In this document: positions 3,422 to 52,596 of the stretch, in pieces
How positions within the stretch are numbered: the stretch's first letter is position 1
Layout: each line of letters starts with the position of its first letter
Origin: an uncultured Acidimicrobiia bacterium
GTDB lineage: Bacteria > Actinomycetota > Acidimicrobiia > Spongiisociales > ZC4RG35
Direction of reading: 5' to 3'
Length of the DNA: 64,000 nucleotides
Assembly (NCBI GenBank): GCA_963744905.1
Contig: CAVUUV010000004.1
Coordinates: 102,360 to 166,359 of the forward strand
Program-made: the position numbers and the translations under genes
Notes under the pieces: generated by a model
What the model saw: the letters and a program-made list of their open reading frames with translations, nothing else
Databases searched by the model: none
Told to the model about the DNA's origin: nothing

Positions 3422-3461
3422 CATCTGGGAACCGCATTCGCCTCGACAGCGTCGGAGCGCC

Positions 3462-4594: not shown

Positions 4595-4675
4595 TCCCCC
4601 CACCCCGGCTCCGGGGAGCTCCCCGGGGCCGGGACGTACGCTCTGGCCGACCGGCAGGGGAGTACGATCCGGCCG

Positions 4676-5263: not shown

Positions 5264-5372
5264 TGGTGAGCGGGCGGCACGGGCCCGACCATTTACCCTG
5301 GCCGACCAGCGCCGCCACCACCGCCACCAAGAGCGCGGCGCTCTCCGCTATCCCCCGCCTCCGCCCTCCCCG

Positions 5373-7895: not shown

Positions 7896-8075
7896 AGCGC
7901 CCGTCGCCACTGAAGCCGAAGTCTCTCGCAGGGTCCTGCCTGCCCTTTCCTCGGTATCATCTTCTTCAGGTCGCAACCTGACGTCCAGGGGTCGATCGCC
8001 GCAGAAGCGGGCGCTGCTTCATAGCAATTCGACCGCCAGAGTCGAGGCGCCCATCTATCGAGATCGGAGGTTCTG

Positions 8076-34042: not shown

Positions 34043-35432
34043 TCAGGGCCCGGACGGACACGGTGCAGCCAACAAGTGTCCTCCCGGAGTCGTGAAGTCG
34101 GTGAACCGGCAGCCGTAGTCGTCCTCGGCCACGACCGAGGGGTCGGACACGATGTCGCCGGCCGGTTTGACGCCGTTCTCAACCCAATTCACCAGGTCTG
34201 CGAAAGCCGTCACCAGTTCGGTGGGAGTGAAACCGCAATGATTCACCCCGCGTATCGCCCTCTGCACCAGGAGATCGCTCCTACCGGCTCGCTGCACTTC
34301 TCCCGCGTAGACGACTTCGTTGAGGAACGGGACGAACAGGTCACCCAGGTTGTGGAGTGTCAGCACCGGAACACGGATGTCACCTCGCACCACCGGTATC
34401 GGGTTCAGTGTCTCGGACCGGCGCAACCAGGGGGCGGCATCAACCCGCACGATCTGGTCGTTCAACTCCTGCTCGGCGACCGAGATGGCCGGGTCGAGGT
34501 CCATCTGGTATTGGGTATCCCGGTTGTCCGGGACCGTCCCGGGCTTGCCCGCCACGGTGCCGTCGCTGACACCGAGGTCGAACAGGAAGTTGCCGGCCCC
34601 GGACGCGATAGGAGGGGAATGTGTTCCAGAAGTACCAGGCCTGGTCGAAGTTGGGACGATCTCCGCCCGAACGCAACTCGACCAGCTGCTTGAAAGCCTG
34701 GCCGGTCGGGTTCAGGGCGAGAGGCCACCCTCCGGGGGTCGATTCCAGGTTGGCCTTGATGGCCGGCACGTCCGCCCCTATGTAGGTAGCGCCATCGGTG
34801 ACGGGAAAGCGCGACTCGCCCAAGCCGAGCTGCTGGGCGGCCACGTTGAAGTCCAGGAAGTAGTCGAACAGCTCGTAATCTCCCAGCACCCCGCACACGG
34901 CCAGGGCTCCGTCGTAGGTCTGGGGGTATTGCTCGACAGAGCGTGCGGTCACGTGACCACCCATCGACCCACCGGTCATGTAAGTGGTTTCAGGATGACC
35001 GAACTGCTGGCCGAACAAGCGGACCAGCGCCTCTGTGTCCCTGACGCCGTCCCCCACGTTGTAGTCGTTGGAAGAGAAGCTGGACGCCGCCCAGGCGAAG
35101 CCGTTGGCGAGGAGGTAGGGACGAAGCGGGTGATTGTCCACCGTCAGCTCGAGGCCGCTTCCCCGGAAGCCGTGGGCCCACATCACCAGCGACCCGTTCC
35201 AGTCGGCGGGCACCTCGATGCGATAGCCGGCGCCCTGGTTTACTCCCCACACCCTGGTGGTGTCTTCGAATCCGGGAAGGGGATCGAAGGGGAGCTCGGC
35301 TTGATCGACGAACCAGGCAGGTTCCGGTTGAGGGGGCCCGTTGGGACCCCAACCGGAACCGAGAGCCGAAATCGGGCCCAGGGTCAGGACCAGCAGGGCG
35401 ACAACGGCGGTGACGGTAGATATGCGTCGCAT
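34043..35432 (-). CDS. Secreted alpha/beta-hydrolase-fold esterase/lipase-like protein (apparent frameshift near 34600)
   Basis: A signal peptide and a GGSMGG nucleophile-elbow motif are present. The 330-aa ORF and the 170-aa ORF overlap in different frames and join at FWNTFPSY / ASGAGNFLFDLG. Confidence 0.6.
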
Positions 35433-35676
35433 TCTTCTCCCTCAGCTTCTCTCTCCCAACCGTACTCTTCGACCCGAGGGTGTGGGCGCGAAGACTATGA
35501 GTCTTCGCGGGGACTCGTCCGGCGACATCCCCTCCGCCGGGGCGTTTCGTCCCGGCTTCCAGTCGTGGTGGTAACCGAGATCGTTTCAGCCCGGCTCCGC
35601 CGGCGTCCGGGAGGCTGGCCCGGCCAATGAACGCACCCGTCCAGGGCCGGAGTACCCCCCGACCTCGTCGATGCCG

Positions 35677-36715
35677 TCAGATGAGCAGACGGTCCTCGTA
35701 CTCGACCCGGGACAGGAGGTGGGGCTCGCCGTCGGTGATGAGGATCATGTCCTCGATGCGGACCCCGCCCCCTCCCGCGCACCTCGGGGACCCAGACGAG
35801 GGGTTCGACTGCGAACACCATGTTGGGCTGGAACTGATAGACAGTGGCTCCGGGCAGAGTTTCGCCTATGTACGGAGGCTCGTTGGCGCCCATCCCTATG
35901 CCGTGCCCGATGAAGAGGCTGAACAGATGATCCTCGAGCCCATGATCTGCGACCTTGGCGATGATGGCGTCAGCACAGTCCTGATTGGTGAAGCCGGGCC
36001 GCATCTTCTCCACACCCGCCATCAGCCCCTCGTATACGGCCGTGTAGATCTTCTGCTGTTGTCTGGATGGTCGCCCCACGACCGTCGTCCGGCCGATATC
36101 GGCGAAATAGCCATTCCACATGGCGCCGATGTCGATGAAACACAGGTCCTGATTTCTGATGATCTTGTCCGTGGCGAGACGGTGAGGCGGGGACATGTGC
36201 TCTCCCGAGGCCACATAGGGGGTGATCACATGGGCCATCTCGCCTCCGAGACGGAAAAGGGTCTGCATGGCGTCGGCGGCCACTTCGAGCTCGCGCCGAC
36301 CCGCCCTCGTCTCGTCCAGAGCTCTCTGCGTGACAGAGTCTCCGATTGCGCAGGCCTCCTCGATCACCGCCACCTCGAGATCTGTCTTGATCCACCGCGC
36401 CTCGTGCATGATGGTGTCTCCGTCCACTACCTCCACATCGGGCAGGTGGGAGCGAAGAGCCTCGATGAACGAGATATTGGCCTGATCGACGGCCAAGACC
36501 CCCGTCTCGCGCTCGCGCAAGAGGGGCGCCAGCGTCTCCTTCACGAAGCCGTCGACCAATTCCCGTTGTTCCATGATGGGAACTGCATGGGCGGCGCCAA
36601 GCCAGCTCATCCCGTACCCGGCCTTGTCGATCTCTCCTCCCGAGGCCAGCAAGATTGGGTCCTCGTCGGAGAACAACAGGGCTCCGTTCAGGGAAGTCGT
36701 CTTACCGGCGATCAA
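35677..36715 (-). CDS. M24-family metallopeptidase/hydrolase (Xaa-Pro peptidase/creatinase fold), apparent frameshift near 35770
   Basis: The pita-bread-fold metal ligands lie in …DIGAMWNGYFADIGRT… and …HGIGMGANEPP…. The C-terminus …GVRIEDMILITDGEPHLLSRVEYEDRLLI* is readable in another frame after a G/C-rich run. Confidence 0.7.
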
Positions 36716-36954: not shown

Positions 36955-38004
36955 TCATGGCTCTGGCACGTCCTGCAGCCGGTCGGAAATATCCAGCCGT
37001 TCGGCCACCTGCCGGAGTTGGTCGAGGAGGACGTCGGGAACCGGAATCCCTCTCCGGCGCTGAGCGACCTCCAACTCGATGGCACCGTCTCCGGGAAGAC
37101 GCACCGCTCCCGGCGGGCCGGCGGATCGAAGCGCCCCCAGATGCTCATCCACGGCCAGCTCGAACTCGTCCTGGGGCCGCATGAGATCGGGACGGAGCAC
37201 GAGGATCGCCTGGCCGGTGTTTGCCACCTCATCGGCCACCGCCCGATGGTCGATGACCTCGGCGCCGAAGGCCGCTCCATTGAGGACGCCGGCGAGCATA
37301 CCGATGGCCACATTGAGGCCCGACCCCTTGTAGCCACCGATCGGCATGAGAAAGCCCTCGTCTGCTCGGGCCGGATCCGTGATCGGCTGACCCCCGGAGT
37401 CGACGACCCACCCTTCCGGCAACGTCTGGCCGGCCTGTGCGAGCACCTTGATCGTCCCGTGCGAGGCCACGGTCGTGGCGATATCGAGCGCGAAGGTACT
37501 GGTGTGACCCGGAATGGCGATCGAGATGGGATTCGTGCCCAGCAGCCTCTGATCGCCTCCCCACGGTGGCATCACGTTGGCGCTCGCCACCGCCATGTAG
37601 ATGGCGATGAAACCCTCCCGCGCAGCCATCGTGGTGTAGACGCCGGCGGCACCGGCGTGGTTGGAGCGGACGGTGCCGACCCAGGCCATGCCCGATTCCC
37701 TTGCCTTGGCAATGGCCGTCTCGACCGCACGGGTCATGACTACCTGCCCGAGTCCATTGTCCCCGTCCACCAACGCCGAGACCGGCGTGTCCCGGGTGCA
37801 CACGATGCTCGGACGCAGATTGATTCCCCCCGCTTCGATCCTGGTGACATAAGGCGGCACCCGAATGATGCCGTGGCCCGTCCGCCCTCTGAGGTCCGCC
37901 TCCAGAAGGCGCTGGGCCGTGATCCGGGCCTGATCTGGCATGACGTCCAGGCTGGTGAACACATCTTCGACGAAGCTCTGGAGGCGCTCCAGTGAGAACC
38001 TCAT
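36955..38004 (-). CDS. Ldh_2-family oxidoreductase (malate/L-lactate dehydrogenase family 2; ureidoglycolate/sulfolactate/Pyr2C-reductase-like)
   Basis: 349 aa. The …RTGHGIIRVPPY…HAGAAGVY… pattern matches the Ldh_2 family. Confidence 0.75.
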   Translation of the reverse strand: MRFSLERLQSFVEDVFTSLDVMPDQARITAQRLLEADLRGRTGHGIIRVPPYVTRIEAGGINLRPSIVCTRDTPVSALVDGDNGLGQVVMTRAVETAIAKARESGMAWVGTVRSNHAGAAGVYTTMAAREGFIAIYMAVASANVMPPWGGDQRLLGTNPISIAIPGHTSTFALDIATTVASHGTIKVLAQAGQTLPEGWVVDSGGQPITDPARADEGFLMPIGGYKGSGLNVAIGMLAGVLNGAAFGAEVIDHRAVADEVANTGQAILVLRPDLMRPQDEFELAVDEHLGALRSAGPPGAVRLPGDGAIELEVAQRRRGIPVPDVLLDQLRQVAERLDISDRLQDVPEP

Positions 38005-38384
38005 TGCTGGAACTGCTCCACGGTCTCGCCCGTATCGGCAAACGTGCGGGTCACGTGCGTGTCCCCGTAAACCCAGAGGATTCGCATCCTGGAAGTGCCG
38101 CTGTTGATGAAGCGATGAAGCTCGCCGGGAGCGATCTGAGTCGTGTCATAGGGAACCGCTGGTCGTTGTTCGCCTTCGAGTTCGGCCAGACCCTCCCCTT
38201 CTATGACGGTCACCTGCTCGATCGTGTTGTGACTGTGAAGGCGAATCGAGGTTCCGGGCGGAAAGGTCGTGATGCCCATGGTGAAGCGTTGCCCTTGCAG
38301 CGGCAGGGGCGTCAGGCGCACGCTTTCGATCCCGTTCCCCCTCTCAACGGGTTCACTCTGGTCGAACTTCAGCAATCTGGCCAT
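38001..38384 (-). CDS. Cupin-domain protein
   Basis: 127 aa with two His-containing cupin motifs (…HSHNTIEQVTVIEGEG… and …GELHRFIN…). It overlaps Ldh_2 by 4 nt. Confidence 0.7.
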   Translation of the reverse strand: MARLLKFDQSEPVERGNGIESVRLTPLPLQGQRFTMGITTFPPGTSIRLHSHNTIEQVTVIEGEGLAELEGEQRPAVPYDTTQIAPGELHRFINSGTSRMRILWVYGDTHVTRTFADTGETVEQFQQ

Positions 38385-38408: not shown

Positions 38409-39152
38409 TCATGCCATGAACCTGCCCCCATTGACCGACACGGTCTGACCGGTCATGAAACTCGCCGACGGAGAGGCGAGGAATACCACCCACCGTGCGA
38501 TCTCATCGGGGCTCTGGTACCGGCCCAGCGGGATGGAGGCCGCCGTGGCACGGCGTTCCTCTTCGTCACGGACCTTCTCGATGCGCTCGGTCAGCACCGC
38601 CGACGGTGCCAGCGCGTTCACCGTTATCCCCAACGGGGCCAACTCGGAGGCCATGACCCTGCTGAGGGCGTGGACGCCCGCCTTGGCGGCCGCATAAGCC
38701 GGTGTGGTCCGATAGGTTGCCACCTGGCCGGCCAGAGAACCCAGATTGACCACGCTTGCCGCCGGCGAGCAACGCAGCCAGGGCAGCGCCGTCTGCGTCA
38801 TCAAGAAGACCGAGGTCAGGTTCAAATCGAGCGTCGCGTGCCATTCCGACAACGGGGCATCGGCCAGGCTCCTCTGGGCTGAGAAGCCGCCGGCATTGTT
38901 GACCAGCACATCCACCCGTCCCTCCGCATCGCCGATCTGTTGCAGGGCAGCCCGAACTTCGTCCGCCGAGGTGACATCGCAACCGATGAACCGCACCCTG
39001 GTGGTGTCTCGGGCCAGTTCGGTGCCCCTATCCGCATCGACATCCAGGGCGTAGACGAGATCTCCCTGGGCGGCGAAGGCAGTGACGATGGCTCGACCGA
39101 TGCCGATTGAGGCTCCGGTGACGATCACCACCCGCTCGTCGGCGGCACTCAC
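38409..39152 (-). CDS. SDR-family oxidoreductase
   Basis: The TGASIGIGRAI Rossmann motif and a YAAAK active-site motif are present. Confidence 0.85.
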   Translation of the reverse strand: MSAADERVVIVTGASIGIGRAIVTAFAAQGDLVYALDVDADRGTELARDTTRVRFIGCDVTSADEVRAALQQIGDAEGRVDVLVNNAGGFSAQRSLADAPLSEWHATLDLNLTSVFLMTQTALPWLRCSPAASVVNLGSLAGQVATYRTTPAYAAAKAGVHALSRVMASELAPLGITVNALAPSAVLTERIEKVRDEEERRATAASIPLGRYQSPDEIARWVVFLASPSASFMTGQTVSVNGGRFMA

Positions 39153-40069
39153 GACGCCACCAGCATCAGGATCTCATCGGAGACGGCAGATCGGGCCATG
39201 GCCATGGCGCCCTGTGACGCTTCGAGGAAGGAAGCTCTCTCTTCGTCGCCCAGATCGACGAAATGGGCCCCTTCGGCCTCCATTCGGCGACGGAGGGACT
39301 CCTCGTACCCGGCGGCGGCTATCCGCTGGACGGAAACGGCCGACCGTGCCCCCTCGGCCACGACTCGCCTGATCTCGGGCGAAAAGGACTCCCAGGTTGG
39401 CCGGTGGGCGAAGAGGCCCCGCGCCCCGTACAGATGCCCGGTCATGGTGACATGCGGATGGACCCGGTCGACCCCGTAGGCAACGGTGTTGGCCAGCGGA
39501 TTCTCCTGGGCATCCACCTTTCCATCGACGATCAAGCCGATTCCATCCTGAAGCTCCGCCGCAACCGGGACCGCACCCCACGACTCGAACAGTGCGACGT
39601 GGAAGGCGTTGGGCTGAAGCCGGACCGTCAGGCCACGACAGTCATCTGGGGTGCGAATCGGGCGCAACCGGTTGGTGAGATGACGAAACCCGTTGTCCCA
39701 AAACCCCAGCACCTCGAATCCGGTACTGGAGGCGACCGATTCTCTCAACGCCCCCCCGAGGCCACCGTCCAGCGCCTCGTGGGCCTGCTTTAGGTCTGCG
39801 AACAGGAAGGGGACATCGAGGACGTTGAGGTCGGGGACCCGGCTCCCCAGGTAGCTGCACGAGAAGTAGCACATGAACATCTCCCCCGCCTCCACCAGCC
39901 GGAACAGATCTGTGTTGGGCCGGCCCTCGTCCATGATGTTGTAGTTGATGGCAACACTCACCTGGTTGGCTGTGGCGGATTCCACGAACCGGCCGAAGGC
40001 GGCCAGGCCCTGGCCGTGGGCGCTTTCTCTGGGTCCATAGCCGCCGATGTGCAGTTCGATCTGGCTCAT
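39149..40069 (-). CDS. DctP-family (TRAP solute-binding protein) homolog with no signal peptide
   Basis: Core TRAP SBP motifs are conserved along the whole length (…LDVPFLF…GFWDNGFRHLTN…DGQENPLAN…). The ORF begins directly with the mature-domain sequence. An upstream stop leaves no room for a leader, and the gene is 77 bp from the divergent neighbour. Confidence 0.65.
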   Translation of the reverse strand: MSQIELHIGGYGPRESAHGQGLAAFGRFVESATANQVSVAINYNIMDEGRPNTDLFRLVEAGEMFMCYFSCSYLGSRVPDLNVLDVPFLFADLKQAHEALDGGLGGALRESVASSTGFEVLGFWDNGFRHLTNRLRPIRTPDDCRGLTVRLQPNAFHVALFESWGAVPVAAELQDGIGLIVDGKVDAQENPLANTVAYGVDRVHPHVTMTGHLYGARGLFAHRPTWESFSPEIRRVVAEGARSAVSVQRIAAAGYEESLRRRMEAEGAHFVDLGDEERASFLEASQGAMAMARSAVSDEILMLVAS

Positions 40070-40146
40070 CTGTCTCGCAAAAGAGGCTGCTCGCGACGAA
40101 TCGTATATGATGTAGGATCAGGCTGTCGAACGGACAGGAGTAGCTG

Positions 40147-41382
40147 ATGGCTCAAGAACCTTGGAAGACCGAGCAATGGTTTTCCAGTCCCTGGAACTAC
40201 CTACCGGAGGTCACAGAGGGGTTTCAAGTTCCCGACGAGGTACGTATCCACGATGTGACCTTGCGGGACGGGGAGCAGCAGGCCGGTGTCGAGTTCACCG
40301 CCGACGAGAAGGTGCAGATCGCCGAAGCGCTCGCCGAGGCCGGTATTCATCGCATCGAGGCGGGCTTGCCCGCAGTCTCCCCGGCCGACAAGGAGGCCAT
40401 CGAGCGGATGGTGGCGGCCGAGCTGCCGACAGAGATCTATGCCTTCAGCAGATGCCTGGTCTCGGACGTGGAATTGGCCCTCGATTGTGGGGTGTCGGGT
40501 GTGGTGATGGAGGTTCCCGCCAGCCATCACTTGATCGAGAAGGCTTACCGGTGGCCGGTGGAAAAGGCGATCGACGCCTCCGTCGAGGCAACCAAGTACG
40601 CCCACGACAATGGGCTCAAGGTGACGTTCTTTCCCATCGACGCCACGAGAGCGACGATGACCCAGCTCCTCGATGACCTCGAGACGGTGGCTACCAATGG
40701 TCATGTCGACAACATCGCCCTCGTCGACACCTTCGGAGTGACGTCTCCCCATGCCATCCGCTACTACACCCGCAAAGTCCGAGAGCGTTTCCCTGGCGTG
40801 CCGCTCGAGACCCATTTCCACATGGACTTCGGTATGGGGGTGGCGAACACGGCCCTGGCCGTGACAGAGGGCGCCTCCGTTCTCCACACCACCGTCAGCG
40901 GGATCGGCGAGCGGGCCGGAAACGCTCCCACGGAGGAGACGGTGCTGGCCCTTTTGACCATGTACGGAATCGACACCGGCATCAACACGGAGAGGTTCAC
41001 CGACATCGCACGACTGGTGGCCGAGCTCTCGGGTGTCACCCAGCCCGCCAATCGCCCGGTCACCGGCGAGATGCTGTACAACGTCGAATCGGGCATCATC
41101 GCCACCTGGGTCAACAACGTGGGCGACGAGCTGCTCGAGCCCTTCCCTTACCGTCCCGAGCTGGTCGGCCAGGCCGACCCGAGCATCGTCCTCGGAAAGG
41201 GCTCGGGGCTCGACTCCATTGCCATCTGGCTGGCCCGGCACGGCATCAACGACGCCGAGACCAAGGAGATCGAGGCGATCCTGGCCGAGGTGAAGGGTCG
41301 GTCTTTGGCCAAGAAGGGCCTGTTGGACGACGACGAATTCCTCGACGTCGTCCGCCAAGTCATCCCCGACAAGGTCAACTGA
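40147..41382 (+). CDS. DRE-TIM metallolyase (HMGL-like/pyruvate carboxyltransferase domain; IPMS/homocitrate synthase/4-hydroxy-2-oxovalerate aldolase-like)
   Basis: DVTLRDGEQ… and …HFHMDFGMGVANTLAA… are hallmark motifs of the family. Confidence 0.75.
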   Translation: MAQEPWKTEQWFSSPWNYLPEVTEGFQVPDEVRIHDVTLRDGEQQAGVEFTADEKVQIAEALAEAGIHRIEAGLPAVSPADKEAIERMVAAELPTEIYAFSRCLVSDVELALDCGVSGVVMEVPASHHLIEKAYRWPVEKAIDASVEATKYAHDNGLKVTFFPIDATRATMTQLLDDLETVATNGHVDNIALVDTFGVTSPHAIRYYTRKVRERFPGVPLETHFHMDFGMGVANTALAVTEGASVLHTTVSGIGERAGNAPTEETVLALLTMYGIDTGINTERFTDIARLVAELSGVTQPANRPVTGEMLYNVESGIIATWVNNVGDELLEPFPYRPELVGQADPSIVLGKGSGLDSIAIWLARHGINDAETKEIEAILAEVKGRSLAKKGLLDDDEFLDVVRQVIPDKVN

Positions 41383-41409: not shown

Positions 41410-42648
41410 ATGCGAGAAGCATTTTTCGGTCTGAGCACCGACTGGAAGGAAGGGATCAACTGGGCCAACGTCAGGGACTGGCGGCTCAAGAGGGCGCACG
41501 AGGCCATGGAGCGGCACGGTCTCGGGGCGCTACTGCTGTTCTATGACGAGAACATGCGATACGTGTCGTCGACCCTGACGCCCGGGTGGAACCGTCTCAA
41601 GCCCGGTCTGCGCTACGTGGTGCTGCCGGCGGGAAAGCCTCCCATCGTGTACGAGCAAGGCGACATCGGCATGCACCTCGAGGTCCACAATCCATGGATC
41701 CCAAAGGAGAACATCCGCCACTCCTACATATGGATCAAGGGAGCCGTCGGTCCGGCCGCCGACCAACAGGTCACGAAGTTCGTGGACGCCCTCTTGAACG
41801 ACCTGGAGGAGGCCGGGGTCCGGGATCAACCACTCGGAGTCGACTTCATCGACATCAACCTCTTGCGGGCGTTTCAAGAACGGGGAATCGAATGGACCGA
41901 TGGTATGTCGCCCATGATGGAGGCGAGGGCCATCAAGTCCCCCGACGAGATCAAGGCGTTTCAGATCGTCGGAGCCATCTGCGACCGGGTGCACTACGAG
42001 ATAACGAACTTCATGAAACCCGGCATGACCGAGAACGAAGTGGCGGCTTTTGGATTCGAGCAGCTCTACTCGATCCCGGGGATGGAAGACGTCGAGGACG
42101 TCATCGTGTCTTCGGGTCCCAACGCCTGGCCCAACTGGCGCAACTTCTCCGACCGCATGATCCGTCCTGGCGAGCTCGTCATCATCGACCTGGCCGCTCT
42201 GACCTGGAACGGGTTCAAGTCCTGCGTCTATCGAACCTACTGCGTGGGCGGCAAACCCACCGATGAGCATCAGCAGGCCTACGACATGGCCCACAAGTGG
42301 CTGTGGGATTCGATCGAAGCCACCAAGCCCGGGGTAACGACAGCCGACGTCGCCTCCAAATGGCCCTCGGCCAAGGAGGCATGGGGATACGAGGAAGAGG
42401 ACCGTGCAGCAGCCAACAACTGGGGCCACGGGCTGGGCCTCGCCCAGTACGACCCGCCGGTGATATCCCGGATCTGGTCCCTCGATCACCCGGTCGAGAT
42501 CCAGCCGGGCATGACCTTCGCTCTGGAAACCCAGCATGGCAAGGTACACGATTACGGGGTGCGTCTCGAAGAGATGATCTACGTCACGGACACCGGCATC
42601 GAGCTCGTATCGACGTACAAGAACCACGAGATCATCGTCATCGACTGA
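41410..42648 (+). CDS. M24-family hydrolase (creatinase/prolidase/ectoine-hydrolase-like fold)
   Basis: It has a creatinase-like N-domain plus pita-bread C-domain (…IIDLAALTWNGFKSCVYRTY…HGLGLAQYDPP…ETQHG…). Confidence 0.75.
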   Translation: MREAFFGLSTDWKEGINWANVRDWRLKRAHEAMERHGLGALLLFYDENMRYVSSTLTPGWNRLKPGLRYVVLPAGKPPIVYEQGDIGMHLEVHNPWIPKENIRHSYIWIKGAVGPAADQQVTKFVDALLNDLEEAGVRDQPLGVDFIDINLLRAFQERGIEWTDGMSPMMEARAIKSPDEIKAFQIVGAICDRVHYEITNFMKPGMTENEVAAFGFEQLYSIPGMEDVEDVIVSSGPNAWPNWRNFSDRMIRPGELVIIDLAALTWNGFKSCVYRTYCVGGKPTDEHQQAYDMAHKWLWDSIEATKPGVTTADVASKWPSAKEAWGYEEEDRAAANNWGHGLGLAQYDPPVISRIWSLDHPVEIQPGMTFALETQHGKVHDYGVRLEEMIYVTDTGIELVSTYKNHEIIVID

Positions 42649-42658
42649 CGCCAGGGTC

Positions 42659-44341
42659 GTGCGATATCCCGATCGACTGGCCGCTGCCCATCTGAGCCCT
42701 GAAGGGTCGCTGCTCATCGGGCTCGACGACGATCGCTGTCTCGATCACCGGCTGGTCGGCGCCAAGGCGGCCCGGCTGGCCAGGGCACGCCGGACAGGAA
42801 TCCCGGTCCTTCCCGGATTCGTCGTGAACGGTTCCGCCTCAACCCACCACATGAAGATCGGCGCCGCTGCGCTGACCAGGCGGGGCTCGGGAGGGGCACG
42901 CCTGGAGATGATGTCCGAGCCTCTGCCCATCGCCGACGATCTGGTCGCGGCCGGATCCCGTCTCGGTCCCCGGCTGGTGGCCCGCTCCTCCACCAGTCTC
43001 GAGGCATCGGGCCGGTGGTCGGGCGCCTTCACCTCGTATCTGGACCTGACTCCCGACGAACTGCCCAGGGCGATCGTCGGATGCTGGGCGTCGGCCTTCT
43101 CCGTGCAGGCAATCAGCCGGCAGCGAGCCGAGAACATCGAGCCCGGCTCCTTCCCGATGAGCGTTCTGGTCCAACCTGCCCTGTCTCCTGCGTCGGGCGG
43201 GACGGCGATGCTCGACGAGGGGGGGCGGGTGACGGTCCATACCGTCGAGGGCTCACCCGCCCCGCTGCTCCAGGGGTGGTCACAGGGTGCTGAGGCACGA
43301 TGGGACGGCCGGTGGATCGGCGAAGAGGCCATCTCCCTGCTGGGAGCCGACCGACTCGACGCCATCGCCTCGCTCCTGAGGCGAGCCCACCAGGTCGTCG
43401 GTGCCGACCGCTGCGAATGGGCACTGGACGACGACATCTGGATTCTGCAGTTGGACTCCGTACCCGCTCCCCCAGCCCTCGATCAGTTCATCGCCCAGCC
43501 TCGAGAACTCGACCCCATTCTGCTCGATGTGGCACGCACGGTTACCAGAGCCCCGGGCGCCCTCGGCGAAGAACTCGTTCTCCCCTGGGCTCTGGCGGGC
43601 CTCCCCCGAACCCTGACATCCTCCGTCGAGAGGCCGGCGACTGCGCTGGCCCGAGCCCGCCACCTGTGCGAGGAGTTGACGGCCGAAGTATGGGGATGTG
43701 CCGCCCCCCAAGCGCGATCATTGGCCCTGGAAACCCTGGAACGACTTCGCACCGGCGATCCCTCACCTGCGCTGGCCCGCATCCGGCGGCTTCGTCCCCC
43801 CGACACAGCGAAGGCGACGACGCTTCTGTCCCTGGTGGACGGCATGCGCCAGGCCCTGGTAGGACTGGGCGCTTTCCCCGACCCCGGCTCGGCCTGGTAC
43901 GCCACGACTCACGAGGTCGAACGGGCGGCACAGAAGACCCCCACAAGTGCGGTCGACCGCGTCGGTGTCTCCGGCTGGGAACCTTTCGTGGCCTCCGTAG
44001 TCCTGGCCGGAGGACACCGTCACCGGGGCACCCCGGCGGCCCCCGGCATCGGGGCGGGCCGACGGCACTCGATCAATGGACCCGACGAGGCCGCCTGGTT
44101 CTCGCCCAGGGAAGTGATCGCCACTCCACAACCCGTCCCCAACCTGGCCCCGTTCCTGTGGGATTCGGCGGGATTGGTGACAGAATCGGGATCCCCGGCC
44201 GCCCACCTCTTCGAGTCCGCCCGGTCTCTGGGAGTACCGGCTGTGTGTGGAGTGTCGTCGGGGGAGACCGACGACGAGATCGTGGCGGTGGACGGCTATT
44301 CGGGAGTCGTCTCTACCACTCCCCTGTTCGGAGAAGCATGA
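42659..44341 (+). CDS. PEP-utilising-enzyme family protein: PPDK_N (ATP-grasp) domain + C-terminal mobile phosphohistidine domain, with no PEP/pyruvate-binding TIM barrel
   Basis: The N-terminal …LVGAKAARLARARRTGIPVLPGFVV… resembles the PEP synthase/PPDK nucleotide-binding region. The C-terminal …ESGSPAAHLFESARSLGVPAVCGV… resembles the swivel phospho-His domain. The protein ends about 60 residues later. Confidence 0.65.
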   Translation: MRYPDRLAAAHLSPEGSLLIGLDDDRCLDHRLVGAKAARLARARRTGIPVLPGFVVNGSASTHHMKIGAAALTRRGSGGARLEMMSEPLPIADDLVAAGSRLGPRLVARSSTSLEASGRWSGAFTSYLDLTPDELPRAIVGCWASAFSVQAISRQRAENIEPGSFPMSVLVQPALSPASGGTAMLDEGGRVTVHTVEGSPAPLLQGWSQGAEARWDGRWIGEEAISLLGADRLDAIASLLRRAHQVVGADRCEWALDDDIWILQLDSVPAPPALDQFIAQPRELDPILLDVARTVTRAPGALGEELVLPWALAGLPRTLTSSVERPATALARARHLCEELTAEVWGCAAPQARSLALETLERLRTGDPSPALARIRRLRPPDTAKATTLLSLVDGMRQALVGLGAFPDPGSAWYATTHEVERAAQKTPTSAVDRVGVSGWEPFVASVVLAGGHRHRGTPAAPGIGAGRRHSINGPDEAAWFSPREVIATPQPVPNLAPFLWDSAGLVTESGSPAAHLFESARSLGVPAVCGVSSGETDDEIVAVDGYSGVVSTTPLFGEA

Positions 44342-45216
44342 TGTCTGCGCGGGTGGGAATCATCGGGCTCGGGGTCATGGGTGCCGCCATGGCCAAGAAT
44401 CTCCTCGCGGCCGATCATGAAGTACTCGGGTTCGATCTCGCTCCCCACAGGAGACAGATCGCCACCGACGCCGGTGTCAGCGTCCTGGCGAATGCGGCTG
44501 CGGTGGCCAAGCGAGCAGACACGGTCGTCTTCTCCCTTCCCACCGTCGAGGCCCTGGCGGCGGTGGCCGACGAGGTCGCCGCCAATGCCCATGCCGAATT
44601 GCTCTGCCTCGAAACCGGCACGTTCCCGCTCGTCGCCAAGTTCTCTGCCCGCGATGTGCTGGCGGCAGCCGGGATCGAACTGATGGACACGGCGCTGTCG
44701 GGCACCGGCCTACAGGCAGCAGACGGAACACTGGTCGTGTTCGCATCGGGAACGCCGGAAGCGTTCGAACGAGCCCAGCCGGTCTTCCGTGCCATCGGCC
44801 GGTCAACGCATTACCTGGGGGAATTCGGCAACGGCTCCAGGATGAAATACATCGCCAACCTTCTGGTGACCATCCACAACCTGGCCACCGCCGAGGCCCA
44901 CGTTCTCGGAATGGCCGCCGGAATGGACCCCGCCGTCGTCCAGGAGGTGATGGAAGACGGCGTCGGCTCCTCGAAGATCTTCGAGATCAGGGGCCCGATG
45001 ATGGTCGCCGGCGATTACCCGGCCGCGGCCCGGCTGGACATCATCCTCAAAGACGCCCGCATCATCGAAGACTTCGCCCAAAGCGTGGGGGCTCCGACCC
45101 CGCTCCTCGATGCGGCGCTCGAGGTCTACACCCGGACCAGCGCAGCCGGTATGGGGGATTTCGACGCGGCCGTCTTGTTCGAGTACCTACGCAACCAAGC
45201 CGGACTCGAACGATGA
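44338..45216 (+). CDS. NAD(P)-dependent oxidoreductase, 3-hydroxyisobutyrate/6-phosphogluconate dehydrogenase-like (HIBADH family)
   Basis: RVGIIGLGVMGAAMAKNL is an NAD-binding motif. The length is 292 aa. Its start overlaps the upstream stop in an ATGA arrangement. Confidence 0.8.
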   Translation: MMSARVGIIGLGVMGAAMAKNLLAADHEVLGFDLAPHRRQIATDAGVSVLANAAAVAKRADTVVFSLPTVEALAAVADEVAANAHAELLCLETGTFPLVAKFSARDVLAAAGIELMDTALSGTGLQAADGTLVVFASGTPEAFERAQPVFRAIGRSTHYLGEFGNGSRMKYIANLLVTIHNLATAEAHVLGMAAGMDPAVVQEVMEDGVGSSKIFEIRGPMMVAGDYPAAARLDIILKDARIIEDFAQSVGAPTPLLDAALEVYTRTSAAGMGDFDAAVLFEYLRNQAGLER

Positions 45217-47498
45217 TCGGTCGGCCGCTTCGCCGCCTCGAGGATTCCCATCTGATCACCGGCAGAGGACGTTACGTCGACGACATCTCACTCCCCTCCA
45301 CGGCCCACGCCGTCTTCGTCCGTAGTGTCGAGGCCCATGCCCTGATCCGATCGGTGAGCCTCGACCAACGCGACGCCGGTCGGGCCCGACTCTTTGGGCC
45401 TCGCGAGCTCGGCCTGACGGCCCCGGTCCAGAACCAGCATCCCTCCCCACTGATCGAGCGCTCCACACAGGCTCCACCCCTGTCCGACCACGAGGTGTGC
45501 TTCGTTGGCCAGCCGATAGCCGTGGTCGTGGCTCCGACGGCTCAGGAGGCAACCGATGCAGCCGGTGCCGTTCTGATCGACTACGAACCGCTCCCGACGA
45601 TGACAGATCATCGTCGGGCATTGGACGTAGATGCCCCTCCCGTGCATTTGGGAGGTGACGGCAACCTCATCGCCACTCTCAGCGCCTCCTTCGGCGAGGT
45701 CGAGGCCGGGTTCGCCACAGCACCTCGAAGGCTGGCCCTGGACGTGGATCAACACCGGGGGGCGGGCGCCTCGATGGAGGGCCGGGCGATCCTGGCTAGT
45801 TGGGAAGAGGGAGAGCTGAAGCTGTGGACTTCGACGCAGGCACCCTATGCGGTTCGAAGCCATCTGGCGTCATATCTCGGTTTGAAGCCCGATTCCGTAA
45901 GGGTGATCGCACCGGATGTCGGGGGTGGCTTCGGGCCGAAGGCAGCCGTCTACCCCGAGGAGTACGTCGTTGCGGCCCTGGCCATTCATCTGAGACAACC
46001 CGTCAAGTGGATCGAACAGCGCCGCGAGAACTTCACGGCCACCTACCAGCAGCGCGGCCAGAGCGGCCGGATCGAGGTGGCCTTCGACGACAACGGAAGG
46101 GTCCTGGCCCTTCGCGCCCACCTCACACACGACTGCGGTGCCTTCGTGCCTTACGGGATCGTGGTCCCCATGACAACGCTCCGTCTGATGTCGGGCCCCT
46201 ACCGGATCCCCGCCCTGGAGGCGACGATCGAATGCGTGTTCACCAACGCCACTCCGACCGCAGCCATCAGAGGGGCCGGCCGACCCAATGCCTGCTTCGC
46301 GCTGGAGCGGACGATGGATGCGATCGCCCGATCGCTGAACCTGGAGAGGGAGACGATTCGGCGTCGCAACTTCATACCCGTCGATGCCCTTCCCTATCAG
46401 GTCGATATCCCCGGCTCGGACGGTCGGCCCATCACCTACGACAGCGGAGATTTCACCCGGGCGCTCGATGCGGCGCTGGAGGCGGCGCGAATCGACGATT
46501 TCCCGAGCCGCCGGGAAGTCTCGGAGCGGAGCGGCCTTCGGCGCGGATACGGCATCGCCTCGTACATCGAAGACACCGGGATGGGCCCCTTCGAAGGAGC
46601 CCGGATCGAGATTCTCGCCGGCGGAGAGGTCCTGGTCGAGACCGGAGCCGGAGCCCAGGGTCAGGGACATGAGACCGTCTTCGCCCAGATATGTGCCCAG
46701 CACCTGGGCGTCGAACCGGGCCGAGTGAGGGTCAGGAGTGGAGACACCGCCTTCTACAGCCACGGCGTCGCCACCGTTGCCAGCAGGACCGGTCAGACCA
46801 CGGCCGCCGCCGTCAGCGTGGCGGCCGAAGAGCTCGCTTCGATCACCAAGGAACTGGCTGCCGACGAGCTCGAGGCTGCATTCGAGGACATCGCCCTCGA
46901 AGGGGGCATGGCCATGGTTGTCGGCCAACCTGGTACCGAGATTCCCTTCGCCGACCTGGTGAGCCGCCTGTCCCGGGCGGATGCGTTCCCCACCCGTCTG
47001 CGAAGGCCCGGGCTCTCGGTGGAACGGGTCGTCCCCTTCGGCGGACTCGGATTCACATACGGGACCCACGTCGCCGAGGTCGAGGTCGATCCCGAGACCG
47101 GACATGTCAGGGTGGTCGGATACATCGTGGTCCACGACTGTGGCACGTTGATCAACCCGATGATCGTCGACGGCCAGATCGACGGCGGGGTGGCGCATGG
47201 ATTGGGTAACGCTCTGATGGAGCGCGTCCAGTTCTCCGACTCCGGCCAGCCGCTGACGACTTCTTTCATGGACTACCACCTGATGACGGCGGTTGAGATG
47301 CCGCCCTTGGTCAAGACGCACACCGTTACGCCCTCTCCCAACAATCCTCTTGGAACAAAGGGGGCTGGCGAGGGCGGCACGATCCCGGCGGCTGCCGCCG
47401 TGACATCGGCCGTCGAGCACGCTCTCTCCGACCGGGGTGTGATCGTGAATCACTACCCGGTTGAGATGCAGTGGGTGCAGAAGGCCGCCACCGGCTGA
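45213..47498 (+). CDS. Xanthine-dehydrogenase-family molybdopterin-binding large subunit (CoxL/aldehyde-oxidase-like)
   Basis: 761 aa. The N-terminal …RLEDSHLITGRGRYVDD… region and the Mo-cofactor domain motifs (…GGGFG…, …GEGGT…) are present. No small or medium subunit genes are adjacent. Confidence 0.85.
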   Translation: MIGRPLRRLEDSHLITGRGRYVDDISLPSTAHAVFVRSVEAHALIRSVSLDQRDAGRARLFGPRELGLTAPVQNQHPSPLIERSTQAPPLSDHEVCFVGQPIAVVVAPTAQEATDAAGAVLIDYEPLPTMTDHRRALDVDAPPVHLGGDGNLIATLSASFGEVEAGFATAPRRLALDVDQHRGAGASMEGRAILASWEEGELKLWTSTQAPYAVRSHLASYLGLKPDSVRVIAPDVGGGFGPKAAVYPEEYVVAALAIHLRQPVKWIEQRRENFTATYQQRGQSGRIEVAFDDNGRVLALRAHLTHDCGAFVPYGIVVPMTTLRLMSGPYRIPALEATIECVFTNATPTAAIRGAGRPNACFALERTMDAIARSLNLERETIRRRNFIPVDALPYQVDIPGSDGRPITYDSGDFTRALDAALEAARIDDFPSRREVSERSGLRRGYGIASYIEDTGMGPFEGARIEILAGGEVLVETGAGAQGQGHETVFAQICAQHLGVEPGRVRVRSGDTAFYSHGVATVASRTGQTTAAAVSVAAEELASITKELAADELEAAFEDIALEGGMAMVVGQPGTEIPFADLVSRLSRADAFPTRLRRPGLSVERVVPFGGLGFTYGTHVAEVEVDPETGHVRVVGYIVVHDCGTLINPMIVDGQIDGGVAHGLGNALMERVQFSDSGQPLTTSFMDYHLMTAVEMPPLVKTHTVTPSPNNPLGTKGAGEGGTIPAAAAVTSAVEHALSDRGVIVNHYPVEMQWVQKAATG

Positions 47499-48432: not shown

Positions 48433-49704
48433 TTGAAACCCAACCTCCTCAAATGGGGGCGGCGGGCGGTAGTGGACGTCCGGCCGCTCCGGCTCGTTCC
48501 CGGATACAGATGGCTGTTCGCCGGGCTGTTCTTCGGACAGGCAGGACGGCAGATGACGGTGGTGGCCGTTCCGTTCCAGGTGTTCGAACTGACCGGATCC
48601 ACCCTGGCGGTGGGTCTGCTTGGTCTCACTCAGCTCGTGCCGCTGCTGGTGGTATCCCTGGTTGGAGGCGCCTTGGCCGATGCGGTGGATCGCCGCAAGC
48701 TTCTTTCGTTCTCACAGGTGATTCTCGCCCTGACCGGGGTCGGCCTGTTGTGGAATGCCGCCGCCGACTCTCCCCTCCTCTGGCCACTCTTCGTCCTCAG
48801 CGGGCTGAATGCAGCGGTTTCGGCCGTCGACTCTCCCGCCCGCCAAGCCGTGCTGCCGGGCCTGGTGGGGCGCGGGCTCCTCCCATCCGCTCTGGCCCTC
48901 AATCAGACCCTCGGGAACGTGGCCAAGGCGGCCGTGCCGGCCGCCGGCGGTCTCCTGATCGCCACGGCCGGACTTCCGTTCAGCTACGGCGCGGTGACTG
49001 TCATGTTCGTCGCCAGCGGCATCTTGTTCTACCGGATTCCCAGCCTTCCCGTCGAGGGAGGAAAAGGACGTTTCAACATCTCCTCGATCGTCGACGGCCT
49101 CCGTTATCTAGGGTCCCGTCGACTCATCCAGGCGGCCATGCTCATCGACCTCAACGCGATGGTGTTCGGAATGCCCACTGCCCTATTCCCCGCCATCGGT
49201 ACCCAGATCTTGGACGGGGACGCCTTCACGGTCGGCCTGCTCTACGCCGCCCCCGGGGCGGGAGCCCTCTTCGCTGCCCTCACTTCGGGCTGGGTTGCCT
49301 CGGTTCGTCGCCACGGCCGAGCCGTGATCATGGCCGTCATCGGATGGGGCCTGGCCATCGCCGTGTTCGGCCTGACCGCCTCGACCGCTCTGGCCCTTGC
49401 GATGCTGGCGATCGCCGGCGGCGCAGACGTCGTGTCCGCCATCTTCCGGAACACCATCGTCCAGATGTCCACCCCCGACGCGTTCCGGGGCCGGCTGATG
49501 TCGATGCACATAGCGGTAGTGGCGGGCGGGCCCCGGCTGGGAGACCTGGAGGCAGGGGTGGTCGCCTCGCTGGCCTCGATCAGGTTCTCGGTCGTCTCGG
49601 GTGGGATCGTGTGTGTCCTCGGTGCCCTGGCAATTACCCGCTGGGCGCCTTCTCTGGCCGCATACAGCTACGAGCCCGACGGCGGCGGCGCGATGGCACC
49701 GTGA
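48433..49704 (+). CDS. MFS transporter (EntS/efflux-like)
   Basis: 423 aa with 12 TM helices and an N-terminal basic region. Confidence 0.8.
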   Translation: MKPNLLKWGRRAVVDVRPLRLVPGYRWLFAGLFFGQAGRQMTVVAVPFQVFELTGSTLAVGLLGLTQLVPLLVVSLVGGALADAVDRRKLLSFSQVILALTGVGLLWNAAADSPLLWPLFVLSGLNAAVSAVDSPARQAVLPGLVGRGLLPSALALNQTLGNVAKAAVPAAGGLLIATAGLPFSYGAVTVMFVASGILFYRIPSLPVEGGKGRFNISSIVDGLRYLGSRRLIQAAMLIDLNAMVFGMPTALFPAIGTQILDGDAFTVGLLYAAPGAGALFAALTSGWVASVRRHGRAVIMAVIGWGLAIAVFGLTASTALALAMLAIAGGADVVSAIFRNTIVQMSTPDAFRGRLMSMHIAVVAGGPRLGDLEAGVVASLASIRFSVVSGGIVCVLGALAITRWAPSLAAYSYEPDGGGAMAP

Positions 49705-52479: not shown

Positions 52480-52596
52480 ATGGTTATCAATGCTAACTGT
52501 GGACCGGCTCCATCGTGTGGATGCTCGCCGCCCCGGGAAGCGATCGAGCCGGTGGGAGCGAGGCATCTACGATCTCGTCAACAACCCACAGGAGTC

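Follow-up and report, generated by a model that had tools for sequence, protein, structure and literature searches.

Annotation pipelines and the field alike treat DctP-family proteins as the extracytoplasmic receptors that serve TRAP transporters, and to our knowledge the DctP fold is known only from outside the cell. In the yiaK-yiaL-yiaMNO operon of Escherichia coli, YiaK is a 2,3-diketo-L-gulonate reductase of the Ldh_2 family, YiaL forms a small beta-barrel, and YiaMNO make up a TRAP transporter whose DctP protein, YiaO, is periplasmic and works with YiaM and YiaN. AmiC of the amidase operon (LivJ-like) and NasS of nitrate assimilation (NrtA-like) are leaderless binding-protein homologues that serve as cytoplasmic ligand sensors, and both act via an adjacent ANTAR antiterminator. 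A solute-binding protein has also given rise to an enzyme, as in the case of cyclohexadienyl dehydratase (PMC7683729). Orphan TTT binding proteins (Bug/TctC family, e.g., AdpC) are encoded beside catabolic genes without adjacent membrane components (PMC5812351).

Here we describe a leaderless DctP-family gene in a 64,000-nucleotide stretch of DNA from an uncultured Acidimicrobiia bacterium, referred to below as the window. The yia operon and the window have the same trio of gene types side by side, one for an Ldh_2 oxidoreductase, one for a small beta-barrel protein and one for a member of the DctP family. YiaK is detectably homologous to the Ldh_2 protein of the window (PDB 1s20/1nxu, E ~1e-31); the latter is, however, closer to sulfolactate and malate dehydrogenases, with L-sulfolactate dehydrogenase as its closest solved structure (PDB 2x06, E = 7.5e-65). 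Unlike in the yia operon, the DctP-like protein of the window is leaderless and the QM genes are absent. With AmiC and NasS it shares a single-domain binding-protein fold, which in our case would likewise be kept in the cytoplasm, and a place in the operon that it serves, but those proteins belong to other binding-protein families. No ANTAR antiterminator partner was found within 5 kb of the gene in the window or in four further loci (L001, L003, L004, and L006), where the neighboring genes all encode enzymes or transporters. Cyclohexadienyl dehydratase resembles the protein in combining a binding-protein scaffold with a metabolic function other than transport, as we propose here, but it derives from another binding-protein family, it is an exported protein, and the residues that catalyze its reaction are known. 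The Bug proteins are similar in lying by catabolic genes without adjacent membrane components, while they keep their signal peptides and are periplasmic.

A Complete DctP-Family Fold

The gene occupies positions 39149..40069 on the minus strand and encodes 306 amino acids, assigned to the family by Pfam, an AF2 model and Foldseek. The Pfam profile DctP (PF03480) matched with E = 2.7e-51 and 175 bits (gathering score 23.4), aligning residues 12–289 with profile positions 5–279 of 286. The NCBIfam model TRAP_S1 scored 142 bits against a cut-off of 50, and the NCBIfam subfamily model for dctP, TIGR00787, scored 139.8 bits, below its cut-off of 175.05. The AF2 model had a pLDDT of 90.1 and a pTM of 0.87. 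Foldseek matched it to 50 TRAP binding-protein chains with a probability of 1.00 and TMq values of 0.82–0.91 (0.85–0.91 for the best 40); the top matches were all TRAP binding proteins, and the alignments, of about 300–311 columns, covered the whole mature protein. According to this model the protein is a complete two-lobe type II binding-protein (Venus-flytrap) fold with a hinge, and its sequence begins at the first strand of the mature fold. A sequence-only reading of the window had noted DctP-family motifs along the full length of the frame and had suggested modeling the structure; the profile matches and the predicted fold both point to a complete mature-type DctP protein.

The closest solved relatives are the classical DctP-type TRAP proteins 4xeq, 4pdd, 4p9k/4pak, 4pdh, and 4nq8, with the highest TM-score for IseP (8t9t/8te9). 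Identity to the nearest solved chains is 24–28%, and to IseP it is 20%. In common with these proteins the target has the Pfam family, the two-lobe fold along the entire mature length (TMq 0.86–0.91), an Arg/Arg/Asn clamp with identical spacing, and the motifs 'NGFRH', 'VR', and 'QENP'. It differs from them in having neither signal peptide nor lipobox, in the lack of dctQM nearby and in its position within enzyme operons.

Absence of a Leader Peptide

The frame upstream of the gene reads ...STA*SYIIYDSSRAASFARQ-MSQIELH (asterisk, stop), with an in-frame stop 17 codons 5' of the start and no ATG, GTG or TTG between the two. Only 77 bp (40070..40146) separate the gene from a divergent HMGL-like gene that starts at 40147. 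Within this intergenic region, a site resembling a promoter for the DctP-like operon was found on the minus strand, with a -35 element TCGACA (40129-40124), an 18-nt spacer and a -10 element TACGAT ending at 40100; a consensus scan returned this one site where 0.3 would be expected. The site lies about 30 nt upstream of the gene, inside a block of about 40 nt that is conserved in 10 Acidimicrobiia loci (the window, L001, L003, L004, and L012–L017).

The N-terminus of the protein is not hydrophobic. Within the first 40 residues the maximum Kyte-Doolittle hydropathy over 12 residues was 0.78, compared with a mean of 2.63 and a minimum of 1.50 in 44 signal-bearing relatives. Among the 120 closest homologues the same measure averaged 0.18 with a maximum of 1.00, and a hydrophobic N-terminus was found in none of them. 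A transmembrane segment was not detected anywhere in the protein, the highest 19-residue window reaching 1.14. Hence, judged by the upstream stop, the hydropathy and the homologues, the target lacks the N-terminal Sec/Tat or lipoprotein signal that is expected of a TRAP P subunit.

The leaderless start is kept in all 120 close homologues, which come from independent assemblies, and across the broad clade described below; 97 of the 120 are exactly 306 amino acids long. At 53 of 80 genome loci there is room for at most 12 residues ahead of the fold, and many loci of the clade have an in-frame stop a few codons upstream of the gene. A mis-called start or a frameshift that hides a leader was rejected, given that independent assemblies agree on both start and length, and in view of the in-frame stops and the conserved promoter-like site. 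The sequence-only reading had held that the protein begins directly at the mature domain and that no leader can be encoded in the short gap, and it would have given way had a signal peptide emerged after correction of the sequence; the homologues exclude this, and both claims stand.

Membrane Partners of TRAP Transporters

Neither DctQ nor DctM was found by Pfam among 45 candidate ORFs of the window, and tblastn of the 64-kb window with six diverse DctM, two DctQ and TctA/B/C queries gave nothing at E < 0.05, in agreement with the earlier observation that these genes are missing. The genetic linkage to dctQ and dctM that typifies a TRAP P subunit is thus not seen in the window, nor do these genes occur within 10 kb in L001, L003, and L004. 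Across the clade, DctM was present within 10 kb at 5 of 80 loci; counting just the 39 loci whose flanks are complete, it was present at 3. Three loci (L008, L032, and L083) have classical dctP-(Q)M genes immediately upstream of the leaderless gene, and some link to TRAP systems may therefore exist. A simple inside/outside pair sharing one ligand was considered and is not supported: the classical P and the leaderless P' of L008 differ at most signature positions.

A second DctP homologue of the window (23281–24736), described previously as an orphan lipoprotein, indeed has a lipobox N-terminus and no QM partner, but in this assembly it is split into two frames near 24290–24330, so that the earlier description is only partly right. 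It is only a distant DctP relative (about 25% identity). Frameshifted genes in the window comprise this one, an M24 gene and a tannase-like gene.

Operon Structure and Gene Context

The DctP-like gene is followed on the minus strand by three partner genes for cytoplasmic enzymes, whose family assignments, made before from the sequence, were confirmed by Pfam in each case. A gene for a short-chain dehydrogenase/reductase (SDR; 38409..39152; adh_short_C2, E = 6e-57) overlaps the stop of the DctP-like gene with its start by 4 bp (ATGA); the same overlap is found in L001 and L004 and suggests that the two genes are translationally coupled. Next come a Cupin_2 protein of 127 amino acids (38001..38384; E = 9e-13), 76–77% identical to its orthologues in L001, L003, and L004, and an Ldh_2-family NAD(P)-dependent 2-hydroxy/2-oxo-acid oxidoreductase (36955..38004; E = 4e-104), whose gene overlaps that of the cupin by 4 bp.

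The divergent operon on the plus strand begins with an HMGL-like enzyme of the homocitrate/isopropylmalate-synthase type (40147..41382; Pfam E = 1e-64; PDB 6ktq, E = 8e-55), 88% identical to its orthologues by tblastn. It continues with an M24 creatinase/prolidase-type protein (41410..42648; 91% identical to orthologues), for which the DMSP lyase DddP is the nearest relative of solved structure, and a protein that joins PPDK_N (ATP-grasp) and PEP-utilizers (swivel-His) domains by Pfam (42659..44341). The gene of the latter always adjoins the M24 gene, a pair that both Acidimicrobiia and Rhodospirillales have conserved; that an M24 protein should be paired with a phosphotransfer protein of the PEP-utilizer type is an unusual feature of the candidate pathway. 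A DMSP-lyase reading of the cluster, based on the DddP-like M24 protein and the cupin, was dismissed as too weak, the DddP model scoring 114.7 bits against a cut-off of 600. Further downstream on the plus strand are a 3-hydroxyisobutyrate-dehydrogenase-like (HIBDH-like) beta-hydroxyacid dehydrogenase (44338..45216; NAD_binding_2 and NAD_binding_11), whose gene has an ATGA overlap with the one before, and a molybdenum hydroxylase large subunit (MoCoBD, 45213..47498), 65% identical to orthologues that carry PF01315, PF02738, and PF20256. An MFS_3/MFS_1 permease by Pfam (48433..49704, plus strand) has orthologues at the same position in L001, L003, and L004 and is likely the importer of the cluster in Acidimicrobiia, with TctCBA in its place in Proteobacteria. 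A GntR/FCD regulator (Pfam) is encoded at 51787-52566 and also in L004.

Synteny with the window operon is kept in L001, L003, and L004. The core of cupin, DctP-like and Ldh_2 genes recurs in Acidimicrobiia, Alphaproteobacteria and Betaproteobacteria, while the importers nearby differ (MFS, TTT). In Rhodospirillales it occurs with M24, PEP-utilizer and HMGL genes and with TctCBA, and in a Variovorax MAG with Aldedh, Glyoxalase, FAH and TctC. Within 10 kb of the leaderless gene, Ldh_2 was found at 21 and the cupin at 17 of 80 loci, and about one quarter of the loci had no recurrent family at all. Clustering of all ORFs within 4 kb at the 80 loci returned no universal neighbor; the most frequent were TctC (31), GFO_IDH_MocA-like (29), HIBDH-like (18), Ldh_2 (14), cupin (13) and SDR (12). 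A TctC gene often adjoins the leaderless gene (34 of 80 loci), which implies that the role of extracytoplasmic receptor is already filled there.

A Large Clade of Leaderless Relatives

Relatives of the protein are encoded in at least 574 stretches of a collection holding one genome per species. They measure about 300–315 amino acids, share 27–44% identity in the wider clade and come from Acidimicrobiia, Nitrospinota, Tectomicrobia, Rokubacteria, and Alpha-, Beta- and Gammaproteobacteria. Among representatives chosen at 50% identity, dozens of leaderless clusters appeared at 30–44% identity, and signal-bearing forms only at weaker scores. Two relatives, P0196 and P0223, carry a Tat signal. In a neighbor-joining tree all 42 leaderless sequences formed one clade, apart from 44 exported sequences; the target thus appears to belong to a large leaderless clade of a single origin. 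The locus is leaderless and free of QM genes, as had been described; beyond what the sequence-only reading could show, it is not a peculiarity of one genome and represents a large clade tied to the conserved cupin/Ldh_2 catabolic module.

The leaderless proteins contain on average 3.35 cysteines per domain, compared with 0.81 in exported relatives (p = 6e-10). This roughly fourfold content also distinguishes the target from classical TRAP proteins, and we regard it as a cytoplasmic signature, from which a location inside the cell is inferred. Close relatives that carry a name in their source are labeled 'TRAP transporter substrate-binding protein' or similar. A literature search turned up no description of a DctP protein that is leaderless or cytoplasmic, and the clade is apparently undescribed.

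Ligand Clamp and Predicted Pocket

Residues R129, R150 and N190 do not vary among 37 diverse leaderless sequences. They are spaced 21 and 40 residues apart, exactly as are Arg152, Arg173 and Asn213 of 4P47, the conserved residues with which TRAP binding proteins bind a carboxylate (PMC11668362). In the model, R150 falls on the sixth predicted beta-strand, like Arg147 of SiaP, the conserved arginine on beta-strand 6 (PMC5812351). Four further invariant residues, Y11, Y68, G215 and A252, are specific to the clade and set the target apart from classical TRAP proteins; from their positions at strand ends and helix starts, and by homology, they probably line the pocket. The residues of the predicted pocket (Y11, S16, H18, Y68, W124, N126, H130, N194, H212, and G215) are almost invariant across operon contexts. 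Besides Y11 and Y68, S16/H18 also count among the invariants specific to the clade.

As both the clamp of two arginines and an asparagine and the clade-specific residues are invariant, the protein has probably kept the ability to bind a small organic acid. It would still close around one such acid, a carboxylate or perhaps a sulfonate, gripped by the clamp. The predicted pocket is nearly identical from one operon type to the next, as fits a single shared ligand or chemistry; a catalyst would be suited equally well.

Proposed Role and Alternative Explanations

Our preferred reading, to which we assign a probability of roughly 45%, is that the protein is a cytoplasmic member of the DctP family and not a subunit of a TRAP transporter, and that it serves the enzymes of its pathway as an intracellular receptor for an organic acid. 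As the product of the first gene of a translationally coupled operon, it would be made together with the NAD(P)-dependent dehydrogenases and the cupin. Following import it would capture, with high affinity and in the cytoplasm, the acid substrate or a labile oxo-acid intermediate. Such capture would keep the free acid concentration low, and the bound acid would be presented to the cupin and the dehydrogenase enzymes. The absence of one universal partner counts against a receptor, as do three signal-bearing relatives that nest within the leaderless clade. Taken together, the data favor a protein that still binds its ligand and acts within the pathway, without separating carrier, sensor and enzyme; the ligand chaperone, sensor and delivery subunit put forward in the sequence-only reading thus stand as candidate roles.

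The main rival to a receptor, which we consider unlikely though a serious contender, is that the pocket has turned into an active site, for example one that works on a hydroxy- or oxo-acid as an isomerase, dehydratase, decarboxylase or lactonase, and that the protein itself supplies a step of the pathway. Cyclohexadienyl dehydratase offers a precedent, the gene sits among enzyme genes in three lineages, and the core is without an obvious dehydratase or isomerase besides the cupin. A predicted pocket that is almost invariant at 27–44% overall identity is, moreover, more typical of fixed chemistry than of diverse ligands. However, no new set of acidic or metal-binding residues distinguishes the clade from its exported relatives, H130, H212, Q188 and E189 are common in classical binding proteins too, and the full carboxylate clamp for tight binding is retained; we also know of no enzyme in the DctP family. 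It seems improbable to us that the protein is a cytoplasmic ligand sensor that controls expression or enzyme activity via protein–protein contact in the manner of AmiC or NasS, as the gene adjoins neither an ANTAR-type partner nor any other regulator that stays constant, and the translational coupling is to enzymes and not to a regulator. Regulators do occur in the clusters (GntR/FCD in the window and in L004, AraC adjoining the gene in L085), but their families vary by lineage. Cytosolic members of binding-protein families with alternative functions are an accepted notion (PMC9602780), and DctP domains are found in signaling proteins, C-terminal to an MCP domain in P0190 and P0241 and ahead of the best-matching MCP stretch in P0231. 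These fusions were nevertheless set aside as evidence for the clade, because the fused domains branch outside it and lack its signature residues.

That the protein is still an extracytoplasmic TRAP binding protein, owing to a mis-called start, an assembly error or non-classical export, and serves a DctQM pair encoded elsewhere in the genome is by now very improbable. The frameshifted genes of the window indicate that assembly errors occur, and a few leaderless genes adjoin dctPQM. The start shared by 120 of 120 close homologues, the upstream stops in many loci, the 77-bp gap and the promoter-like site nonetheless largely refute it; the high cysteine content and partners that are NAD(P)-dependent cytoplasmic enzymes argue in the same direction, as does the divergence of the adjacent classical P of L008 at signature positions. 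We give least credence to the idea that the gene is a functionless relic of a TRAP operon in decay. The missing membrane partners and the disrupted second DctP-like gene of the window would suit such decay, but conservation already contradicts it: every homologue has kept an intact reading frame, column identity averages 78% among 61 family members, the operon position is conserved, and the clamp is invariant across a clade that spans several phyla.

A more far-reaching proposal, possible but in our view rather doubtful, is that the fold has acquired a new function in this clade, either as a catalyst or as an obligate intracellular substrate-capture subunit acting with the cupin and Ldh_2 proteins, and that together they define a widespread, so far uncharacterised pathway by which bacteria of sea and soil would break down a small organic acid of the keto/hydroxy or sulfo type.

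Implications for the DctP Family

Leaderless DctP-like genes sit within breakdown-pathway operons in hundreds of bacterial species, and cultured carriers of the clade include Rubrivivax (sp. RP6-9, L071), Roseibium (sp. MMSF_3544, L078) and Antarcticirhabdus (A. aurantiaca, L072). The conserved cupin/Ldh_2 module would provide an entry to a candidate catabolic pathway shared widely among Acidimicrobiia and Proteobacteria. If the whole clade works inside the cell, many genomes would carry a mis-assigned 'transporter' gene, and both transporter counts and substrate predictions made from DctP genes would be inflated. A new metabolic role of the Venus-flytrap fold, in capture, hand-off or catalysis, would then become testable.

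A leaderless DctP protein spanning the mature fold

The ORF at 39149-40069 (minus strand) encodes a protein of 306 aa that matched the Pfam family DctP (PF03480; E = 2.7e-51) over residues 12-289, corresponding to profile positions 5-279 of 286. It scored 142 bits against the NCBIfam model TRAP_S1 (cut-off 50) and stayed under the cut-off of the TIGR00787 dctP model (139.8 vs. 175.05). In frame with the ATG, the sequence 5' of it is STA*SYIIYDSSRAASFARQ-M, which places a stop codon at a distance of 17 codons with no alternative start in between; the spacing from the ATG to the divergent HMGL-like gene (start 40147) is only 77 bp. The maximum 12-residue hydropathy in the first 40 residues was 0.78, compared to 2.63 on average and never less than 1.50 in signal-bearing relatives, and no 19-residue window of the protein exceeded 1.14. 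DctQ, DctM or TctA were not found in the window, either by Pfam scans of 45 candidate ORFs or by tblastn, for which six queries of DctM, two of DctQ and those of TctABC were used. The protein lacks both the export signal and the linkage to DctQ/DctM (QM) membrane subunits, which are among the defining features of a functional P subunit of a TRAP transporter. The sequence-only reading, which had described a full-length DctP homolog with no room for a leader, no membrane subunits and SDR, cupin and Ldh_2 as operon partners, was confirmed; the feature is real, was correctly observed, and is more general than could be known at that point.

The AlphaFold2 model (61 family members) reached a pLDDT of 90.1 and a pTM of 0.87, and Foldseek against the PDB returned TRAP solute-binding proteins only (probability 1.00, TMq 0.82-0.91). 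Since these alignments span ~300-311 columns and the target chains have ~300 residues, the 306 residues represent the whole mature fold and nothing more. The best solved relatives by sequence (4xeq, 4pdd, 4p9k, 4pdh, and 4nq8; E 5e-34 to 8e-29) showed 24-28% identity in the Foldseek alignments; no solved structure falls within the leaderless clade. By sequence and fold, the protein is a DctP family member. Its invariant residues R129, R150, and N190 are spaced by 21 and 40 residues, exactly as Arg152, Arg173, and Asn213 of 4P47, which according to the IseP paper are conserved in TRAP binding proteins and bind the carboxylate (PMC11668362). R150 is located on the sixth strand of the model, like SiaP Arg147, an arginine shared by 96.8% of TRAP binding proteins (PMC5812351). 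The acid-gripping machinery is intact.

Extent and signature of the leaderless clade

The 120 best database homologues were 62-75% identical to the DctP-like protein, and those with a named source are labelled as Acidimicrobiia MAGs. They are 303-338 aa long (exactly 306 aa in 97 cases) and all share the N-terminus M-x(3-5)-LWIGGYGP; extensions in the few longer calls are hydrophilic. Mean column identity among 61 family members was 78%, and the lack of a leader is a trait of the family rather than a chance event. Searching 1.84 billion cluster representatives added dozens of clusters of 302-317 aa (30-44% identity), in which the alignment begins at their own residue 2-8 and a hydrophobic N-terminus is absent, while relatives with a signal peptide or lipobox appeared at weaker scores only (lengths 324-370, offsets +22 to +60). 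With a profile of 37 leaderless sequences 2645 proteins were retrieved at E<1e-20; the top 120 have 294-336 aa and belong to Entotheonella, Rhodospirillales, Desulfobacterales, Kiloniellales, and others. Using the clade motifs VDAQENPL and [FWY]WDNG[FIV]RH, relatives were found on at least 574 stretches of a one-genome-per-species collection. The best 80 of these loci include Nitrospinota, Tectomicrobia, Rokubacteria, Chloroflexia, and Alpha-, Beta-, and Gammaproteobacteria, with cultured carriers such as Rubrivivax sp. RP6-9 and Antarcticirhabdus aurantiaca; in 53 of the 80, at most 12 residues are possible before the fold, often with a stop within a few codons.

In a neighbour-joining tree, all 42 leaderless sequences formed one clade apart from 44 exported relatives, a grouping that is indicative only because the tree lacks bootstrap support. 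Three signal-bearing sequences alone fell inside this clade, namely P0148, whose signal is of the lipoprotein type, and P0196 and P0223, whose signals are of the Tat type (SRRNFLK, KRKFLK). For a DctP protein, Tat is an unusual export route, which may reflect folding or ligand loading beforehand. The chemoreceptor-type proteins P0190, P0231, and P0241, in which a DctP domain is fused to an MCP signalling domain, formed their own branch outside the clade; in P0190 and P0241 this fusion would put the DctP domain in the cytoplasm. Leaderless members contain 3.35 cysteines per domain, exported relatives 0.81 (p = 6e-10), an excess that fits a reducing cytoplasm.

Across the 37 leaderless sequences (27-44% identity), G10, Y11, P87, G127, R129, R150, G165, N190, and Q248 are invariant and G49, Y68, W124, N126, H130, N194, H212, G215, and A252 nearly so. 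While R129, R150, N190, H212, Q188, and E189 are common to leaderless and exported proteins, Y11, Y68, G215, and A252 are rare in the latter (4-19%). The same signature was found in members of very different operons (the window, loci L008 and L009, Entotheonella, and Rhodospirillales). The signature residues lie at strand ends and helix starts of the predicted model, the places of ligand contact in type II binding proteins, and by this analogy would line the pocket.

Operon context in the window

The DctP-like gene is the first of an operon continuing with SDR, Cupin_2, and Ldh_2, with ATGA overlaps at the SDR (with the DctP-like gene) and at Ldh_2. The genes of the divergent operon code for the HMGL-like enzyme, an M24 protein with DddP as its closest solved relative, a protein of the PPDK_N/PEP-utilizers type, a 3-hydroxyisobutyrate-dehydrogenase-like (HIBDH-like) enzyme, a molybdenum hydroxylase large subunit, an SDR, and an MFS_3 permease. 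This arrangement recurs on three long Acidimicrobiia contigs, which lack DctQM within 10 kb. Orthologues were 64-69% (DctP-like), about 60% (SDR), 77% (cupin), and 70% (Ldh_2) identical to those of the window, and 88% (HMGL) and 91% (M24) in the divergent operon. A block of ~40 nt in the intergenic region (40095-40140), conserved in ten Acidimicrobiia loci, reads ..TTCGACAG..GATCCT.CATCATATACGAT.. and contains the region's sole promoter-like site (TCGACA-18-TACGAT, 40129-40100, minus strand), from which an mRNA would begin roughly 25 nt before the DctP-like ATG. The block is probably a shared promoter or operator. A GntR/FCD gene is present at 51787-52566.

In Acidimicrobiia and Rhodospirillales, the M24 gene (DddP/creatinase-like) is always directly followed by PPDK_N plus PEP-utilizers (ATP-grasp, swivel-His), as at 41410-44341 (+) in the window and 2963-5396 in locus L006. 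This pairing hints at an undescribed two-protein ATP-dependent enzyme.

Elsewhere in the window, the second DctP homolog noted by the sequence-only reading (23281-24736, minus strand) indeed has a lipoprotein-type N-terminus (..ALAVVLTMSAC..) and no QM genes nearby, but it is distant (~25% identity to classical DctPs), has a C-terminal extension of ~110 aa, and is split into two reading frames near 24290-24330, making it either a pseudogene or an assembly indel. An M24 peptidase-family gene (35495-36715, minus strand), located elsewhere in the cluster in related genomes, is 84-85% identical to orthologues over residues 1-316 only; its last 90 residues are low-complexity read-through, indicating a frameshift at the 3' end. 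At 34043-35432 (minus strand), the ORFs 34043-34555 and 34440-35432 overlap in different frames, the upstream one with weak tannase/esterase-like matches, and this looks like a third frameshifted gene. Together the three suggest indel errors or gene decay in this stretch.

A conserved core with changing transporters

A Rhodospirillales chromosome carries GFO_IDH_MocA, cupin, leaderless DctP-like, Ldh_2, TctC, TctB, and TctA in this order, with the M24 and PEP-utilizer pair on the opposite strand; a related alphaproteobacterial locus also has an HMGL-like gene (55% identity to the window's). A third version of the cupin/Ldh_2/DctP-like module is the operon of a Variovorax MAG (L085, 3567-13014): NMT1-like, Ldh_2, aldehyde dehydrogenase, cupin, glyoxalase, FAA hydrolase, TctC, leaderless DctP-like, AraC, EamA. 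Within 10 kb of the leaderless gene in the 80 loci we counted TctC in 29-34 (depending on the threshold), HIBDH-like in 25, Ldh_2 in 21, SDR in 18, cupin and TctA in 17 each, and DctM in 5 (3 of the 39 with full flanks). When neighbours within 4 kb were clustered without bias, TctC, GFO_IDH_MocA-like dehydrogenase, HIBDH-like, TctA, Ldh_2, cupin, and SDR were the commonest families, and no partner was universal. A TctC gene adjoining the leaderless one, where present, already fills the role of extracytoplasmic receptor. The DctP-like/enzyme core travels while the transporter changes.

In L008 (5073-8930), L032 (5890-10834), and L083 (154-4575), a classical dctP-(Q)M set is followed immediately, on the same strand, by the leaderless gene. 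Inside and outside proteins for one ligand were considered for L008; as its classical and leaderless P proteins differ at most signature positions, the pair does not resemble such an arrangement. Locus L009 holds two leaderless paralogues in one cluster (2942-3841 and 8001-8921), with molybdenum hydroxylase, Fer2, Amidohydro_2, ADH, an Asp/Glu-racemase-like gene, and EamA, adjoining urate/purine catabolism genes.

Proposed function

With its Ldh_2, small beta-barrel and DctP genes, the operon is reminiscent of yiaK-yiaL-yiaMNO of E. coli, whose P protein is periplasmic. Nothing on leaderless DctP proteins was found in the literature searched. One survey classes ~1% of the proteins that match Pfam families of binding proteins as cytosolic and serving alternative functions (PMC9602780).

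That the DctP-like protein is cytoplasmic and not a TRAP subunit is very likely. The data contradict both an exported protein that was mis-annotated, which is highly improbable, and a decaying relic, which is hardly credible at all. The strongest competitor, in itself rather unlikely, is an enzyme derived from a binding protein: such conversion has precedent (PMC7683729), and this explanation stays alive because the near-identity of the predicted pocket in different operon contexts fits one chemistry as well as one ligand. A sensor of the AmiC/NasS type is more doubtful, as there is no constant regulatory partner and the DctP domains fused to MCP do not belong to the clade.

The analysis shows a binding-protein fold that is complete, under selection and leaderless, that has an intact acid clamp, and that is expressed together with NAD(P)-dependent enzymes of the cytoplasm from a module with an interchangeable importer. 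We tentatively propose, with a probability of 0.45 for the full statement, that the DctP-like protein has a small organic acid as its cytoplasmic ligand and works as part of the pathway, where it would most likely capture an imported substrate or a labile oxo-acid and present it to the cupin and the dehydrogenases.
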